From the IMG/VR virus record IMGVR_UViG_2565956631_000008: a stretch of 17,914 nucleotides of DNA, one strand, 5' to 3'. Positions within the stretch are counted from its first letter, which is position 1; each line of letters opens with the position of its first letter. Below, piece by piece: positions 11,853 to 17,059 of this stretch. The notes under the pieces are model-generated. The model made no database searches and was not told the DNA's origin. It saw only the letters and a list, made by a program, of their open reading frames with translations. Source of the stretch: a virus. Its lineage: Duplodnaviria > Heunggongvirae > Uroviricota > Caudoviricetes. The position numbers and the translations under genes are program-made.

Positions 11853-12032
11853 ATGGTTAGTAAAAGCAAGGCGCATTGCCGCCGCATGCTGCAGGCATTG
11901 CAACAGACGAGAGCAGGTATTTTTGACCAGTTGGAAAACTGCCAGCATACTTTGCCCGAGTATATCGCCATCTCATCGGAAACCAGTGCAACTCTTATTC
12001 ATCGGGTTCCACCAGAGAAAAAGAAGAAATGA
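11853..12032 (+). CDS. Small hypothetical protein (59 aa) with strong RBS
   Basis: ATG at 11853 preceded by GAGGAAGGAAAG; MVSKSKAHCRRMLQALQQTRAGIFDQLENCQHTLPEYIAISSETSATLIHRVPPEKKKK. The longer ORF-track frame (from 11679) overlaps the upstream gene and lacks an RBS. Confidence 0.45.
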   Translation: MVSKSKAHCRRMLQALQQTRAGIFDQLENCQHTLPEYIAISSETSATLIHRVPPEKKKK

Positions 12033-12037
12033 ACAGT

Positions 12038-12062
12038 GAGGCGTTGTGTGGCATACAACGCC
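12038..12062. terminator. Perfect 9-bp hairpin between convergent genes; probable bidirectional terminator
   Basis: AGGCGTTGT-gtggcat-ACAACGCCT starts 6 nt after the stop of the plus-strand 59-aa ORF and is followed by TCTTCC; on the minus strand it is followed by a CATTTCTTCTTTTTCTC tract. Confidence 0.5.
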
Positions 12063-12154
12063 TTCTTCCATCATTCCTCGTCAGCCATGACAAAAATATA
12101 ACCGCTGGCTCTTTCATTTTTCTCCTGCGTCCAGCCCCTCTCTACCTGGAAGCA

Positions 12155-12481
12155 TCAAGGACGTGACGGCGTAAAGATAAATTGTCTCTTCACTCCCTGA
12201 CAGGGGCGATTCTTTTCAAATCGCCATTTCGCCATGGCCTTCACCACTTCATCACGAAACAAATTATGAGGCTCTGAGCGGAGAAAAACGATCCGTGTCA
12301 CAGTCCCATCAGCACCAATATCGAACTTAACCTCAACCAGCCCCTTGATATAATTTGCTGCAGCATATTCCGGATATCGTGGATACACCGTCACTAATTG
12401 CCGGGGCTCATCAGCTTTTTGCTGCGAGCATCCCACTGCCAGGACAGATAACAGAAAAAGTAGTAAAAGGCGTCTTTTCAT
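12155..12481 (-). CDS. Lipoprotein with TonB C-terminal-domain-like fold
   Basis: Start at MKRRLLLLFLLSVLAVGCSQ (ATG 12479-12481, AGGA 7 nt upstream): signal peptide plus lipobox-like AVGC. Remainder ...VYPRYPEYAAANYIKGLVEVKFDIGADGTVTRIVFLRSEPHNLFRDEVVKAMAKWRFE aligns with the E. coli TonB C-terminal domain (YP..A.A..I.G.V.VKFD...DG.V...S.P...F..EV..AM..WR.EP). Confidence 0.7.
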   Translation of the reverse strand: MKRRLLLLFLLSVLAVGCSQQKADEPRQLVTVYPRYPEYAAANYIKGLVEVKFDIGADGTVTRIVFLRSEPHNLFRDEVVKAMAKWRFEKNRPCQGVKRQFIFTPSRP

Positions 12482-12791
12482 TTTTATTCCTACGGGTCTT
12501 ATTCTGACAATATATCCTGTGTTCCAGACTGCCACATCACCACATCCTGTGCCATTATCTGACTCACATTACATACATCGCATCGGGATACAGTAGTAGC
12601 ACTTTCTGTAATACAGCTTCCTGTTTCTTCCACCATCGCACCGGGATAAACCCGCGAATCATTAACGCGGTAAAAACCCGGTGTGCATCGTTTTTAATTA
12701 TCCCCGCACACTCGCGCAGAGGAGTCTCCCTGTCGGGCTGCGGTCTCTGTTAATGAGGGAATATAGCGACGATACGGCGCATCAACAAAAC

Positions 12792-13265
12792 TTATTTCAG
12801 GCACTGAGTGCGGATATAGTCCTGTGCCCCTTCCAGTTGCTTGTGCATCGTCATCAGCCGCTCTCTGAGGGTGAAATAATCCCGTGTAACGGTGTCTGCC
12901 AGTTGGGGGCCGGTTGCATTATCCACGCCGGAGGTGGTGGGGGCTTCACGCACGGAGCCTGGACAGGTGGCGTTGATCCGCAGGCGCTTACGACCAGCGG
13001 CAACGTCAGCGCGAAGAGTTTCATTTTCAGCTCTCGCATCGGCTAATTCCCTCGAGTATTTTGCATCGAGCGCAGCAACATCGCGCTGGCGCACCTGCAT
13101 ATCAGTAATGGTTGCGTTCGCCAGCTTCAGTTCACTGGCTTTGTTATCGCGCTGCGCTTTGTAGGTAATCGCGTTATCACGGTAATGGTCTGTTGCCATC
13201 CACAGCGCACCACAGGCCACCAGCAGAATAACGATAAACGCGGAAAGCATTCGGTTTATGTTCAC
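12792..13265 (-). CDS. Rz: Spanin inner-membrane subunit Rz (i-spanin)
   Basis: ...[55 protein letters not shown]...[18 protein letters not shown]...; near-identical to lambda Rz. The ORF-track start is GTG (13263-13265) overlapping the stop of the upstream small ORF as GTGA; an alternative ATG lies at 13248-13250. Confidence 0.93.
12854..13039 (-). CDS. Rz1: Spanin outer-membrane lipoprotein subunit Rz1 (o-spanin), embedded in Rz in the +1 frame
   Basis: [59 protein letters not shown]; lipobox plus proline-rich core, near-identical to lambda Rz1 and wholly inside Rz in a different frame. Confidence 0.9.
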
Positions 13266-13393
13266 CCCAGCAACCCCGACGAAGACAACATCATCCAGGC
13301 CATGGAAAGAAAAAGAGCAACCAGCATTAGTGAAAATGAAATGCCGACAATTACACAGAGGATCTTCGCCAGCGTTATGAGTTTGTCTGACAT
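13262..13393 (-). CDS. Small single-pass membrane protein (43 aa), function unknown
   Basis: Internal ATG at 13391-13393 preceded by GGGAGG 8 nt upstream; [43 protein letters not shown] has one hydrophobic helix. Its TGA stop overlaps the Rz GTG start. Confidence 0.5.
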
Positions 13394-13407
13394 GCTTAAT
13401 CCTCCCT

Positions 13408-13554
13408 TCACGATTTCAACGCAATGACCAGTTTTGCCAGCCCATACAGCATCGGGGACACAGCAACACCGACCGCCACCCACTTAATGGCAAAAGCCAG
13501 TGCTCTGCTGATGTCATCAGTTACAGGCGCTTTCAGTTCAAGGCCATTTTTCAT
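13408..13554 (-). CDS. Small protein with C-terminal transmembrane segment (48 aa), function unknown
   Basis: ATG at 13552-13554 with GAGG 6 nt upstream; [48 protein letters not shown]. An alternative start at 13590 (MAKCKR...) is possible. The stop lies 14 nt before the next small ORF. Confidence 0.4.
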
Positions 13555-13746
13555 AGTCAACCTCAACAGAATTCGTTTACACTTCGCCATGTTCTCCCTT
13601 GCCTTACTCAAGGTCAGAAACACAAAACCTCGCTTGGTGCCAACAAACGGGGTTTTTACTTTTATTCACTTACGTTTCGCCAGTTCGCAGGATTTCGTGT
13701 TATCCGCCCGCGTGGCCATTCCTCATTTTTCAGCAAAATATTCTGC

Positions 13747-14280
13747 TTATCTGTCGATACCCCAGCACGCCAGCGCGCTCTCCTGGTCACGACGGGATAC
13801 CTGACCGTAACAGTTGTTTGAACGAATACGGCAGTCTCTGCCACCGTCCTTAATCCACCAGCGAATCGCTTCGCAGGCACCTTTTCGATCACCAGCATTA
13901 ATTCGTCTGTAAAACGTCGACGGGAAACACTTACCGGGACCAATGTTGTACGGACAGAATGACGCGATCCCCGCTTTCTGGGGTTCGGTCAGCGGCACTC
14001 TGATGTTTTTCTCCACCCACGCCAGCGCTTTATCACGCTCAATGGCGTTAACCTGGTCGCATTTTTCCTTCGACAACTTCATGCCCGGAACGACAGGTTT
14101 GCCATCCACCATGATGGCACCACGGCAGATGGTCCAGATACCTGCACCATCACGGTATGCCGTGGTGTGGTTGCCTTCCTTTTCATCCAGAAACTGGTCG
14201 AGAATGTCAGGCGCAGGCGCACCAGCGGCAATCAGCGCCAGAACGGCAGCCGACAGGCCGTATTTGATTTTGGTGTTCAT
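13747..14280 (-). CDS. R: SAR endolysin (T4-lysozyme-like muramidase, GH24) with N-terminal signal-anchor-release domain
   Basis: 177 aa; N-terminal Gly/Ala-rich weakly hydrophobic segment YGLSAAVLALIAAGAPAP, then EGNHTTAYRDGAGIWT giving the E-x8-D-x5-T catalytic spacing typical of phage 21 and P1 type SAR lysozymes. Confidence 0.9.
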   Translation of the reverse strand: MNTKIKYGLSAAVLALIAAGAPAPDILDQFLDEKEGNHTTAYRDGAGIWTICRGAIMVDGKPVVPGMKLSKEKCDQVNAIERDKALAWVEKNIRVPLTEPQKAGIASFCPYNIGPGKCFPSTFYRRINAGDRKGACEAIRWWIKDGGRDCRIRSNNCYGQVSRRDQESALACWGIDR

Positions 14281-14316
14281 GGATATATTAAATATTCAGC
14301 CGCTGTCCCTGGCCCA

Positions 14317-15207
14317 CTAAATACGCACTTTAAGATAAGTCAGCCCCGGATGAAGCCAGTAAGCCGGCCCTTTTTTAAAGGGTGGAGTATTAAAATCACG
14401 AAGAAGAGCCTCCCGCACAATTGCATCCTTATCAGCACCACTGGCCAGCGCTTCAATCTCAGCGGCTACCTGAAGATATCCCATGCAACGGCCAACGCGC
14501 TTCATCAGCCCCTGCTTTTTATTGTTCTTCAGGTAATCAATGGCAAATTCAATGAGCTCCTCACTGTGCTGGTGCGATGGAGGTGTTACTTTCCCATTTT
14601 CTGAGATGGTTATTTTCCCAGCATCACCGGATACAACAAAGGATGGCCGGTTACACTCCCATTCCGGGTCACTGAAATTATCATTATGAATACTGAAACA
14701 CTCTGCGAGATTTCTGCTCATCACTTTCCGACAATAATCGTCAAACGCAGCAAACTGCTTTTCATCGCCAGAAGGCACCAATATCGACCATTTCTTATTC
14801 AGCTCAACGACGTAGCTCTCCAGTTTTTCAATACGTGATTCAACATCATCTTTTTCTGACCGCAGTGTTGACGGCGGCATCTTCAGAGAACAAGTAATTC
14901 TTCCCGGTAGCTTTCCTTTGTAGGTTATCAACACATCCTGCGCCTCTAAAATTACGGGGCGCTTTTCCGGCAACGGTTCGTTCCATTCACATAACCCGGC
15001 AGCAACATCCATGAAAAACTGCTTCGCCTGCTTTTTCGCCTCAGCTTCGTAAAACTCCAGCGTGGCACCTTCAGTACGGTCAAGACTAATCGCCACATCT
15101 GGCAACAACAGCGACGCTTGCCCGTCACCTTCCGACTTCACAGTAACAGTAACCTTATCCCCGTAATTATTTATCCCCTTAACAACCAGTTCATATTTTT
15201 TATTCAT
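14317..15207 (-). CDS. Uncharacterised 296-aa protein inserted between holin and endolysin
   Basis: Long ORF with ATG at 15205-15207, 4 nt after the holin stop, and a GGAGAG Shine-Dalgarno upstream; MNKKYELVVKGINNYGDKVTVTVKSEGDGQ.... No TM segment, signal peptide or catalytic motif I can recognise. GC looks lower by eye than the flanking late genes. Confidence 0.75.
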   Translation of the reverse strand: MNKKYELVVKGINNYGDKVTVTVKSEGDGQASLLLPDVAISLDRTEGATLEFYEAEAKKQAKQFFMDVAAGLCEWNEPLPEKRPVILEAQDVLITYKGKLPGRITCSLKMPPSTLRSEKDDVESRIEKLESYVVELNKKWSILVPSGDEKQFAAFDDYCRKVMSRNLAECFSIHNDNFSDPEWECNRPSFVVSGDAGKITISENGKVTPPSHQHSEELIEFAIDYLKNNKKQGLMKRVGRCMGYLQVAAEIEALASGADKDAIVREALLRDFNTPPFKKGPAYWLHPGLTYLKVRI

Positions 15208-15211
15208 CACT

Positions 15212-15427
15212 TTACTCTCCCCGCGCCGCCTTACGCCGGTCCTCTTTGATTTTGAAATACAGGTTAGTCAGATATGTCAGCAGCCCAAACAGCAGACTCC
15301 CCAGCACGCCTATTGCCGCCCACTGAGACGGGGAAACCCTGTCCAGCAACTGCAGGAACCAGTAGCCCGTTCCCACCGCTGACGTGGTGTATGACACACC
15401 TGTTGTGATTTTTTCCATCTGGTACAT
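15212..15427 (-). CDS. S: Class II pinholin (phage 21 S-like) with dual-start motif
   Basis: [71 protein letters not shown] (71 aa), near-identical to phage 21 S / E. coli EssD-type holins as recalled. Two in-frame Met codons (15427 and 15418) give antiholin and holin forms; GGGAG Shine-Dalgarno upstream. The ORF-track start at 15532 is an over-extension. Confidence 0.92.
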
Positions 15428-15459
15428 ACCCCGTCTCCCGTTATCCGGAAGCTGACAAC

Positions 15460-15491
15460 AATAAAAAAGCCACCAGTTAAGTACTGATGGC
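15460..15491 (-). terminator. Rho-independent terminator-like hairpin about 30 nt upstream of the holin start
   Basis: Minus strand: GCCATCAG-tacttaa-CTGGTGGC (8-bp stem with one G.U pair) followed by TTTTTTATTGTTG. Confidence 0.55.
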
Positions 15492-15734
15492 TCTGATAAC
15501 TCATGCAGGCGTCTCAGACGACCCACTGACACTACCGGTGAGTTTAACGATACCTTCCATTTGACTGGCTCACTTTTTATGATGATGCCGGTGCATTTAT
15601 CTCCAGCACCAGACTTTCTATCTCAACGCCATACGTTGCATTTTTGGTAATATCCGTCAGCGTCAGTGCATTTAGTCCCACTGCCAGACCGTCTTTTATG
15701 GCCTGGAATGCCGGGCCAGTACGATGACGTAGTA

Positions 15735-15938
15735 TCACTCCGGCTCAGTTGCACCACTGACCACCACATCACCTTCTGCTGCAATCGCCTGCATCAGGGT
15801 ATAAGGGGTTATGGCCACCGGACTACCAAACGGCTGCCAGCCCTCTTTCAGTTTATGTGTCAGCTTTTCCGCAAGATCTGACGGCGACGCCGCCCTGACA
15901 ACATCATAGTGTTTAAATGCCATGGTTCTTTCCACCAT
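15735..15938 (-). CDS. Small conserved prophage protein upstream of the holin (possibly DUF1737 family)
   Basis: 67-aa ORF MVERTMAFKHYDVVRAASPSDLAEKLTHKLKEGWQPFGSPVAITPYTLMQAIAAEGDVVVSG; the start may instead be the internal ATG at 15923 (MAFKHYD...). The family assignment is from memory and not verified. Confidence 0.55.
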   Translation of the reverse strand: MVERTMAFKHYDVVRAASPSDLAEKLTHKLKEGWQPFGSPVAITPYTLMQAIAAEGDVVVSGATEPE

Positions 15939-16183
15939 CTGAAAAATGATTCTTTAAAATACCTGACATGTAATACAGAAAAAACACAAAACCATACCTT
16001 AAATAAAAACCTCATCATCAAGCAGATATGCATGGATAAACTACAAGACGAGATATAAACCACCCTGCATTTAAATAAACAATAAACAACATCAGAAAAA
16101 TAATTCTGCTCTATGGTTTACAATCAAAAATATCATTTATACTTTTCAGAACATCACCAGCAAGGCATAAACAAGGAAACTAA

Positions 16184-16519
16184 ATGAAGTGGATTGTGAT
16201 TGATACAGTTATCCAGCCATCATGCGGAATATCTTTTTCAGTCATATGGAGTAAAATAAAATTAATAATCTGGTATCAATCGGATGCTTTCTTACCTCCT
16301 GAAAGTATATTTACACTGACTCACACAGGTATCATGCTCAATAACAAAGTGCTACCTGTAACCATTTACAACGTAGTACCATTCAATAAAACATTCTGGA
16401 ATTTAATCAAAAACAGCCAGGAATGCCCTACAAATACAGATAACGTATTGAATGAATGCTTTAATAACCGTTGCACTCTGCAAATATGTCCTTATGGGCT
16501 AAAACAACAAAGTCCATAA
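16184..16519 (+). CDS. Hypothetical 111-aa protein in an AT-rich island, opposite strand to the late operon
   Basis: 111 codons without a stop in clearly AT-rich DNA, which is unlikely by chance; AAGGAA Shine-Dalgarno 6 nt upstream of the [46 protein letters not shown]...[15 protein letters not shown]; no homolog recognised. Confidence 0.5.
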
Positions 16520-16809: not shown

Positions 16810-16886
16810 TGGCGCGTTGTACTGGATTCGAACCAGTGACCGATTGCTTAGAAGGCAATTGCTCTGTCCGGTTGAGCTAACAACGC
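16810..16886 (-). tRNA. argO: tRNA-Arg, anticodon UCU (reads AGA)
   Basis: Hand-folded 77-nt cloverleaf from the minus strand: acceptor GCGTTGT/ACAACGC, D-stem GCTC/GAGC, anticodon stem ATTGC/GCAAT with loop CTTCTAA, T-arm ACTGG-TTCGAATC-CAGT, discriminator G, encoded CCA. Resembles E. coli argU. The gene symbol follows the ileZ-argN-argO order of Stx phages and is tentative. Confidence 0.8.
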
Positions 16887-16899
16887 AGGGTACAGATAA

Positions 16900-16976
16900 T
16901 GGACCGCCATCGAGGACTCGAACCCCGCGCAACCAGCTTCGAAGGCTGGCGCTCTATCCTGATGAGCTAATGGCGG
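16900..16976 (-). tRNA. argN: tRNA-Arg, anticodon UCG (reads CGA/CGG)
   Basis: Hand-folded cloverleaf: acceptor CCGCCAT/ATGGCGG, D-stem GCTC/GAGC, anticodon stem CCAGC/GCTGG with loop CTTCGAA, T-loop TTCGAGT, encoded CCA. The C1 start and U discriminator are unusual, so the ends may be off by a base. Gene symbol tentative. Confidence 0.7.
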
Positions 16977-16983
16977 TATGTGA

Positions 16984-17059
16984 TGGTGGCCCTTGCTGGA
17001 TTTGAACCAGCGACCTGGCGATTATGAGTCGCTCGCTCTCACCACTGAGCTAAAGGGCC
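16984..17059 (-). tRNA. ileZ: tRNA-Ile2 (anticodon CAU, presumably lysidine-modified; formally could be Met)
   Basis: 76 nt, GGCCCTTTAGCTCAGTGGTGAGAGCGAGCGACTCATAATCGCCAGGTCGCTGGTTCAAATCCAGCAAGGGCCACCA; roughly 90% identical by eye to E. coli ileX as recalled. Confidence 0.8.

Follow-up and report, generated by a model that had tools for sequence, protein, structure and literature searches.

Three described proteins illustrate how small single-pass membrane proteins can be essential or rate-setting for phage lysis. The releasin of phage Mu (gp25) is a DUF2730 protein comprising an N-terminal transmembrane domain (TMD) and an acidic cytoplasmic domain of ~70 amino acids (PMC9239132), Lcc6 of the Shewanella phage LambdaSo is a 65 amino acid protein that is required at the pinholin step and is essential for lysis (bioRxiv 10.1101/2024.01.23.576932) and ORF52 of the Salmonella phage BSPM4, 64 amino acids long with a single TMD, binds its cognate holin and delays lysis (PMC11657625). 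The timing of lysis sets phage burst size and, in Shiga toxin (Stx)-converting phages, also the timing and amount of Shiga toxin release. Here, we analyse two small open reading frames (ORFs), designated ORF1 and ORF2, that lie between the endolysin gene (R) and the spanin gene Rz in the lysis cassette of an E. coli prophage. The prophage sequence is a stretch of 17,914 nucleotides (IMG/VR record IMGVR_UViG_2565956631_000008), referred to below as the window; all coordinates are those of the window unless a locus handle (L099 and the like) is given, and the lysis cassette occupies its minus strand (Table 1).

The products of ORF1 and ORF2 resemble each of the three described proteins in part. 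The Mu releasin is likewise membrane tethered, with virtually no periplasmic part, and is encoded a few genes 3′ of an endolysin of the signal-anchor-release (SAR) type (PMC9239132); in the window, the two genes next 3′ of the endolysin are ORF1 and then ORF2, within the span of about five genes expected for a releasin. Unlike gp25, however, they do not match DUF2730 (at E values up to 1) and also accompany a non-SAR GH108 endolysin, the ORF1 helix is C-terminal in a protein of 48–60 amino acids and ORF2 is only 43 amino acids long, and a releasin assignment was rejected. Lcc6 is also a small single-pass protein with no domain annotation that is not lytic alone, and it comes from a lambda-like phage with a pinholin, a SAR endolysin and Rz/Rz1, but its N-terminal TMD is followed by a 43 amino acid cytoplasmic tail and its gene lies near int/xis, outside the lysis cassette; the ORF1 layout is the opposite of this, its helix being C-terminal, and ORF2 consists of little else than a TMD. 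ORF52, which adjusts the timing of lysis and is likewise a small phage membrane protein with a single TMD, differs in being holin binding, toxic when overproduced and encoded outside the cassette, whereas no fewer than two unrelated holin sets accompany ORF1 and ORF2, which speaks against a fit to one particular holin. Lcc6 (which was compared by description only), ORF52 and releasin are precedents for small transmembrane modulators of lysis, but they differ from ORF1 and ORF2 in layout and do not appear to share homology with either.

Two further groups of proteins offer partial parallels. The dual-start holins (lambda S107/S105, phage 21 S71/S68) share with ORF1 the presence of two conserved in-frame starts, each with a Shine–Dalgarno (SD) sequence, and a long form that adds a basic segment, but where these have two or three TMDs, ORF1 has a single C-terminal helix of weak hydrophobicity; it is also encoded 3′ of the endolysin, and no holin profile matches it. 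The chromosomally encoded AcrZ, MgrB, MgtS and CydX proteins are 30–50 amino acids in length, consist mostly of one transmembrane (TM) helix and act by binding a larger membrane protein. ORF1 and ORF2 similarly contain little beyond one TM helix, although AcrZ and its counterparts differ from them in being products of chromosomal genes and in having known partners.

Small membrane proteins encoded beside lysis genes are therefore a known kind of protein, of which the two families described here are uncharacterised variants with different architectures. Nor is the existence of ORF1 and ORF2 itself new, as both are already annotated as hypothetical proteins and belong to PHROG families of unknown function. 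A literature search by protein, locus, PHROG and phage name found no publication on either, and ORF2 is absent from the account given in a comparative study of Stx phages that covers S, R, Rz and ant (PMC8136144).

Two small conserved genes between R and Rz

The R and Rz genes of phage lambda overlap by the sequence ATGA, with nothing intervening, and the same overlap is seen in the K-12 prophage Qin, where rrrQ is coupled directly to the Rz-like gene rzpQ; a search for counterparts of ORF1 and ORF2 in Qin found none. The premise of an initial annotation of the window, that R is normally found directly 5′ of Rz, therefore holds. In the window, R and Rz are separated by 481 bp (13266–13746), in close agreement with the ~480 bp given in that annotation, and the gap contains a hairpin followed by ORF1 and ORF2.

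The coding status of the two ORFs was assessed using alleles drawn from ~190 fetched loci, which yielded 25 alleles for the ORF1 core and 26 for ORF2 that are distinct at the nucleotide level. Every locus with a full-length alignment has the frame open, with the same start and stop throughout; intact frames were counted in ~165 loci, and ORF length is maintained down to 65% amino acid identity. The ratio of non-synonymous to synonymous substitution rates (dN/dS), calculated as a pooled pairwise Nei–Gojobori estimate with codon bootstrap from alleles that are related and recombining, is 0.18 for ORF1 in the sense frame (bootstrap 0.09–0.36), compared to 0.52 and 9.6 in the other frames of the same strand, and 0.27 for ORF2 (bootstrap 0.16–0.45), compared to 0.87 and 1.8. 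Variable sites at the first, second and third codon positions number 15/4/30 for ORF1 and 24/17/30 for ORF2. Antisense frames are either closed or have dN/dS values above that of the sense frame; one is open in all alleles at 0.32–0.37 but can be discounted, because it is the one expected to mirror the wobble positions of the sense frame. Two antisense ORFs on the plus strand (126 and 80 amino acids) were considered as genes and rejected, given their higher dN/dS and the fact that their extents are not conserved: the 126 amino acids of the window compare with 80 in the cassette of L099.

These results show that ORF1 and ORF2 are genuine conserved protein-coding genes under purifying selection in the sense frame only. 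The initial annotation had proposed two small membrane-protein genes, to be told apart from a spacer in which the DNA but not the reading frames would be conserved, and the frames are clearly conserved. That the gap should be non-coding spacer, and the ORFs chance frames, is scarcely credible: the ORFs are indeed short, and an antisense frame is open in every allele, but the lowest dN/dS is that of the sense frame, starts, SDs and stops are conserved, variation falls mostly at third codon positions, the extents of the antisense ORFs vary between cassette types, and the ORFs match independent PHROG families and are called by the Prokaryotic Genome Annotation Pipeline (PGAP). Searches of ORF1 and ORF2 against Pfam, NCBIfam and PADLOC identified no family, the sole match being a non-significant one to DUF3930 (E 0.08).

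ORF1 has two candidate starts, which would give two forms. The long form of 60 amino acids, which is that called by PGAP as a hypothetical protein, runs from an ATG at 13590 to a TGA at 13410–13408, whilst the short form of 48 amino acids begins at an in-frame ATG at 13554, preceded by a GAGG SD, and is universally conserved. (Position 13623, at which the initial annotation ended the feature, is the GTG of a mechanical 71 amino acid ORF.) Both in-frame starts and both SDs are kept even in distant homologues, although in a Yersinia homologue only the short form is possible. The long form would carry a basic 12-residue extension (xKYKRILLRLT), for which the in-frame selection value of 0.31, against 0.41 and 0.47 in the other frames, fails to separate the frames over only 12 codons. 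The match to the unknown-function family phrog_1115 extends over residues 5–71 and over profile positions 1–67 of 67, and the related families phrog_4493 and phrog_3246 are also matched. The N-terminus is short, soluble and conserved (MKNGLE..APVT.[DE]I[ST]) and leads into one long C-terminal helix (residues 23–59 in the AlphaFold2 (AF2) model), with a conserved Lys36 and Ser-Pro, a Lys-Ser end and about 2 residues past the helix. The description of ORF1 as a 48 amino acid protein with a C-terminal hydrophobic segment holds: the frame, SD and helix all exist, although the helix is only weakly hydrophobic (Hessa sum +3.7 kcal/mol, comparable to the +3.2 kcal/mol of the lysozyme SAR segment) and the form annotated by PGAP is longer.

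ORF2 is simpler. It extends from an ATG at 13393 to a TGA at 13264–13262 and is also a hypothetical protein in PGAP; its SD lies 2 nucleotides past the ORF1 stop and 7 nucleotides ahead of its own start. The unknown-function family phrog_4906 matches residues 1–43 with profile positions 7–49 of 49. The protein consists of MSDK, a hydrophobic helix of ~30 residues and a terminal SSSGLLG, with lysines at positions 4 and 10 near the N-terminus and about 8 residues beyond the helix. Its helix is strongly hydrophobic (Hessa sum −3.8 kcal/mol over residues 11–29) and is modelled by AF2 at residues 2–38 with a predicted local distance difference test (pLDDT) score of 89, bearing out the original description of a 43-residue single-helix peptide with a GGGAGG SD. 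On the positive-inside rule, both ORF1 and ORF2 would be expected to adopt an N-in orientation, with almost nothing exposed to the periplasm.

The junction of ORF2 with Rz depends on where Rz begins. The TGA of ORF2 and a GTG start for Rz overlap as GTGA at 13265–13262, an arrangement resembling the ATGA of lambda R/Rz and Qin rrrQ/rzpQ. The overlap noted in the initial annotation is therefore real but holds for only one of two Rz starts, because PGAP prefers, in a 100% identical prophage, an ATG at 13250 that is 11 nucleotides past the ORF2 stop. The latter has no SD, and translation from the GTG gives an Rz protein beginning MNINR..., with an N-terminal arginine as in lambda Rz and other alleles (MNRVL...). 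The ORF2 alleles themselves are mosaic, with a near-constant N-terminal half and a C-terminal half that falls into a few types, each going with a type of N-terminus in the neighbouring Rz, which points to a probable recurrent recombination break within ORF2. This apparent co-variation was considered as evidence for an interaction and rejected, as it is accounted for by linkage and the recombination break inside ORF2.

The hairpin and the distribution of ORF1 and ORF2

The hairpin proposed in the initial annotation at 13624–13656 is present and is conserved across cassette types. Its stem arms (13656–13644 and 13636–13624) form 12 pairs with one C.A mismatch, and it is flanked by an A-tract ahead and by UUUUGUGUUU behind. 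Six variants from three cassette types, folded separately, each have a G+C-rich stem of 12–14 bp followed by a U-tract, with folding energies of −17.6 to −20.4 kcal/mol; the hairpin in the window is weaker (−12 kcal/mol) because of the mismatch. The outer stem is invariant, whilst the inner stem varies (GUUUG/CAAAC, GGCUG/CAGUCC, GAACG/CGAUC, GAUUGCUG/CAGUC), and since the inner pairs differ yet the stem is kept, the changes are compensatory. RNAalifold registers one compensatory pair only in the alignment, because the inner stems differ by insertions and deletions. The hairpin moves together with ORF1, also being found ahead of the ORF1 homologues in L192 and L196 (discussed below), and marks the left edge of a mobile module. 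A scan for sigma-70-like promoters across 12700–14400 on both strands found zero sites, including in the interval between the hairpin and ORF1, and an Rfam search of 12000–16000 gave no match at E values up to 1. With no promoter and a terminator-like hairpin upstream, ORF1, ORF2 and Rz would be transcribed only by Q-modified polymerase, as inferred from known Q antitermination. The presence of a conserved terminator within a lysis cassette raises the question of differential expression inside the late operon.

The order lysozyme, hairpin, ORF1, ORF2, Rz is found in all 80 IMG/VR loci (L004–L083) that still hold those neighbours, while their flanks are mosaic: Rz is 54–100% identical, the holin 76–100% and the YdfR-like gene upstream of the lysozyme is variable. 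Of 5426 complete E. coli genomes, 1038 (about one in five) contain the hairpin–ORF1–ORF2 module at 80% coverage or above, and 2153 contain parts of it, in up to 12 places per genome. Plaque-forming phages (PhiR5_2, PhiR12_1) also carry the module.

ORF1 and ORF2 are not confined to cassettes of this type. In an unrelated cassette, Phage_holin_8, Phage_holin_3_7 and a soluble non-SAR endolysin (GH108/PG_binding_3) are followed by ORF1 and usually by ORF2, with 85–90% identity for ORF1 and 58–67% for ORF2. Here, ORF2 is followed by a gene encoding a 60 amino acid lipoprotein (phrog_7528, lipobox LLVGC), the start of which is 4 nucleotides downstream. No Rz/Rz1 or other spanin annotation is found in a 42-kb stretch covering one prophage of this GH108 type, which is either a spanin-less phage or one with three small envelope proteins in the place of the spanin.

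ORF2 is strikingly widespread in Stx phages. A total of 276 phage records, mostly from Stx-converting phages, have it between ant and Rz without ORF1, in most cases at 60–80% identity over the full length; examples include VT2phi_272, the O104:H4 phage P13374 (ORF53) and Sakai Sp5 (ECs_5707). ORF2 is either not annotated or is a ‘hypothetical protein’ in most records listed, and the gene has gone mostly unnoticed in carriers that include outbreak phages (Sakai and O104:H4). In these cassettes, the stop of ant and the start of ORF2 overlap as TGATG, and the Rz ATG is 7 nucleotides past the ORF2 stop, with its SD inside the end of ORF2. The hairpin is absent from the Stx phages and homology with the window breaks exactly at the hairpin start, implying that ‘hairpin plus ORF1’ and ‘ant’ are alternative inserts next to a fixed ORF2.

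ORF1 too can be found alone. In L084, a variant similar to Salmonella ORF1 variants lies directly ahead of Rz, with a 34 amino acid TM ORF alongside (L084 2200–2690), and in a Yersinia enterocolitica prophage remnant, a 49 amino acid homologue with an RWW end is followed by Rz 1 nucleotide later. The Yersinia remnant (L193 4001–4601) adjoins host genes and is represented by 1647 collection blocks and seen in more than 1000 contigs; it may be fixed in the species, or nearly so. ORF1 and ORF2 are thus separable cargo rather than an obligate pair. Other variants of the gap hold up to four small TM ORFs, including 28 amino acid ORF1 paralogues with an RWW end that abut Rz, the endolysin–Rz gap being a hotspot for ORFs of small size and hydrophobic character. 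L135 (2300–2870) has four in a row, namely a 50 amino acid TM peptide (phrog_12997), a 47 amino acid ORF1 variant, a 49 amino acid TM peptide and a 28 amino acid paralogue, MSADFIRATAFAIRLVAVAVLVWAIRWW, that abuts Rz, whilst PhiR5_1 (L187 700–1850) has ant, ORF2, a truncated ORF1 and a 28 amino acid peptide.

The ORF1 module is also found outside lysis cassettes, in the tail-gene regions of two contigs from non-E. coli phages (L192 470–735 and L196 3940–4190). In both, ~45 nucleotides around the internal ATG (TATAAACGAAT.CT..TGAGGTTGAC.ATGAAAAA.GG) are near-identical to the window, whilst divergence is far greater across the remainder of the gene. This pattern suggests that the stretch could be a constrained translation-initiation or RNA element. 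The ORF1 family is narrow, its profile matching just 19 cluster representatives at E < 1e-3 among 1.84 billion; those with names come from Escherichia, Yersinia, Klebsiella and one record labelled Achromobacter.

A tentative role in lysis and the alternatives to it

What might these proteins do? Our preferred reading, held with rather less than even confidence, is that ORF1 and ORF2 are accessory proteins of the inner membrane, single-pass and expressed late, that tune the step of lysis taking place at the membrane. The two would be independent late genes, accessory cargo in the variable R–Rz junction of lambdoid lysis cassettes. Transcription from the late promoter by Q-modified, terminator-resistant polymerase would read past the hairpin, so that both were co-expressed with the holin, endolysin and spanin genes, and translation would be chained from ORF1 through ORF2 to Rz, replacing the ATGA coupling of R to Rz seen in lambda. 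The peptides would then enter the cytoplasmic membrane in the late phase and adjust when the holin triggers, or how efficiently, along with later events. Their target may be generic (the bilayer, the proton-motive force or a conserved host membrane protein), generic action being likelier than a lock-and-key fit to one holin because the same proteins accompany unrelated holins and endolysins. The recurrence of the pair directly 3′ of the endolysin in the unrelated GH108 cassette supports a role of this kind, as do the constant gene order in the 80 loci despite their mosaic flanks, the position of ORF2 ahead of Rz in the 276 phage records and the Yersinia ORF1 homologue that ends 1 nucleotide before Rz. 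Of the interpretation given in the initial annotation, the location in the lysis cassette and the tight packing against Rz are borne out, whereas a specific partner, as in antiholin or spanin modulation, is disfavoured by the variety of holins and endolysins, by the Rz-less cassette, by the separate occurrence of the two genes and by the copies of the ORF1 module outside lysis cassettes.

Several observations weigh against a role in lysis. Neither protein shows homology to any characterised lysis protein in Pfam, NCBIfam, PHROG or PADLOC. Lambda and K-12 Qin couple R directly to Rz without such genes, which must therefore be dispensable for the basic lysis pathway, and in Stx phages the same junction is filled by ant, a non-lysis gene, so that position alone is no proof of a lysis role. 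The ORF1 module is also found among the tail genes of two other phages (L192 and L196), the association with unrelated holins and endolysins argues against a classical antiholin model and the dN/dS values come with the caveat that they are pooled pairwise estimates from related, recombining alleles.

More specific lysis functions were also considered. ORF1 and ORF2 match none of the holin families of Pfam, NCBIfam and PHROGs and have a single helix each, rather than two or three TMDs, and a holin/antiholin assignment was rejected on profile and topology; specific association with one cognate holin family was not found, as S21-type pinholin and Phage_holin_8 plus Phage_holin_3_7 both occur. Spanins have either an N-terminal TMD with a long coiled-coil domain in the periplasm (i-spanins) or a lipobox signal (o- and u-spanins); ORF1 and ORF2 lack a lipobox, have only ~2 (ORF1) and ~8 (ORF2) residues past the helix and are followed by the true Rz and Rz1, and a spanin assignment was likewise rejected. 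A bolder reading, to which we would give only a slim chance, makes ORF1 and ORF2 a new class of generic, membrane-conditioning lysis factors that act without regard to the holin; in the GH108 cassettes, where they and the 60 amino acid outer-membrane lipoprotein take the position of the spanin, the three could form a hitherto unrecognised envelope-disruption module in its stead.

A function unconnected with lysis has also to be weighed. Morons are extra DNA between genes that are adjacent in relatives, with their own promoter upstream, a terminator downstream and expression in the lysogen. ORF1 and ORF2 could be moron-like late membrane cargo, involved in superinfection exclusion, in blocking host membrane proteins or envelope stress or in interplay between co-resident prophages, riding in the R–Rz junction only because insertions are tolerated there and late expression of the site is high. 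The junction does behave as a general cargo site, given the presence there of ant and, in other variants, of as many as four different small TM ORFs together, and the genes do lie between neighbours that are adjacent in relatives, as the R/Rz overlap in lambda and Qin and the sharp breaks in the Stx phages make clear. ORF1 and ORF2 move independently of one another, the tail-gene regions of L192 and L196 contain hairpin plus ORF1, the families have a narrow taxonomic range (19 representatives for the ORF1 profile, as above) and lambda lysis proceeds without them. On the other hand, no promoter-like site was found in the interval scanned (12700–14400), and the terminator-like hairpin is upstream of ORF1, rather than downstream, which is the reverse of the classical moron layout. 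The E. coli, Salmonella and Yersinia copies are always in a lysis cassette or its remains, chained to Rz or to the next cassette gene, and PADLOC finds no match to a defence or exclusion family. On balance, we regard such cargo as the main alternative and a serious one, though less likely than a role in lysis. Were the genes unrelated to lysis, the R–Rz junction would still have been shown to be a hotspot at which genes for small membrane peptides accumulate.

The alternative that ORF2 serves mainly as a translational coupler, delivering ribosomes to Rz or to the next start after insertions broke the R–Rz overlap, with the peptide itself unimportant, draws on the tight spacing of these genes: in every context the ORF2 stop overlaps the next start or precedes it by 4–11 nucleotides, ant and ORF2 overlap as TGATG in the Stx phages, lambda and Qin use ATGA coupling of R to Rz and the Rz ATG at 13250 has no SD. 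A pure coupler, however, would need neither the purifying selection at the amino acid level that is seen for ORF2 (dN/dS 0.27, upper bound 0.45) nor the 30-residue hydrophobic helix that is retained across alleles of 65–100% identity, making this explanation improbable, though coupling and a peptide function are compatible rather than exclusive. Less probable still, and indeed very unlikely, is the membrane-active toxin module raised in the initial annotation, whether of the type I toxin–antitoxin kind or as an autonomous killing peptide. The size and hydrophobicity of ORF2 (43 amino acids, Hessa sum −3.8 kcal/mol) are like those of type I toxins and BSPM4 ORF52 is an example of a small TM phage protein that is toxic on overproduction, but there is no promoter-like site on either strand, no match to an Rfam antisense RNA family and no long 5′ UTR (untranslated region), the genes are co-oriented with the late operon and chained into it, and neither PADLOC, Pfam nor NCBIfam identifies a toxin family. 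The idea of an autonomous transcription unit or type I toxin–antitoxin locus was dropped for want of a sigma-70-like site on either strand. As candidate accessory lysis factors, ORF1 and ORF2 are well defined, and can be tested by deletion in well-studied phages.

Neighbouring genes in the window

The coordinates of the features discussed are collected in Table 1. The N-terminus of the lysozyme R has a SAR-like segment, MNTKIKYGLSAAVLALIAAGA, that is weakly hydrophobic judging by hydropathy and its Hessa sum.

Table 1 Features of the lysis cassette in the window, with examples of the GH108 cassette from other loci
Feature	Position	Strand	Evidence and remarks
Class II holin, phage-21-type (pinholin family), MYQMEK dual start	15212..15427	-	PF04971 E 2e-32; PGAP ‘class II holin family protein’ in identical prophage
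DUF1327/YdfR-family protein, 297 aa	14317..15210	-	Lies between holin and endolysin
Endolysin R, GH24 phage lysozyme, 177 aa	13747..14280	-	PF00959 E 2.4e-24; phrog_7 endolysin
Intrinsic-terminator-like hairpin with flanking A-tract and U-tract	13614..13657	-	Terminator scan and folds
ORF1, small membrane protein	13408..13590	-	phrog_1115 E 1.9e-46; PGAP WP_001446668; dN/dS 0.18
GGGAGG Shine–Dalgarno of ORF2	13401..13406	-	Read from sequence
ORF2, single-pass membrane peptide, 43 aa	13262..13393	-	phrog_4906 E 2.1e-23; PGAP WP_001280932; dN/dS 0.27
Rz i-spanin gene	12792..13265 (GTG start) or 12792..13250 (ATG start)	-	PF03245 E 2e-47; phrog_13
Rz1 o-spanin gene, embedded in Rz	12854..13039	-	PF06085 E 4.4e-20
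TonB_C lipoprotein, 3′ of Rz	12155..12535, probable start ATG 12481	-	PF03544; lipobox LAVGC
GH108 cassette examples	L099 1079-3037; L190 20067-21937 (E. coli PSS-15 prophage)		

The YdfR-like protein has an N-terminal DUF1327/YdfR domain and a full-length match to phrog_1085, a family of unknown function. In strain 7/2, which has an identical prophage, the sole PGAP call in this interval is a 336-bp pseudogene (‘incomplete YdfR family’), although the long frame is open, and the length of the gene is very variable among related cassettes (113 to 297 amino acids matched). The TonB_C lipoprotein gene occupies the slot in which lambda and the Stx phages have bor; PHROG 1267 tags this family as ‘Rz-like spanin’, in what looks like an annotation error. 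Upstream of the cassette, three tRNA genes (Met-type with a CAT anticodon, Arg TCG and Arg TCT) are clustered at 16810–17059 on the minus strand, in the position taken by ileZ-argN-argO upstream of stx in the Stx phages, the window itself being without stx. A gene for the anti-adapter IraM, recognised from the annotation of an identical prophage, is located at 16184–16519 on the opposite (plus) strand, in the interval between the tRNA genes and the holin gene.

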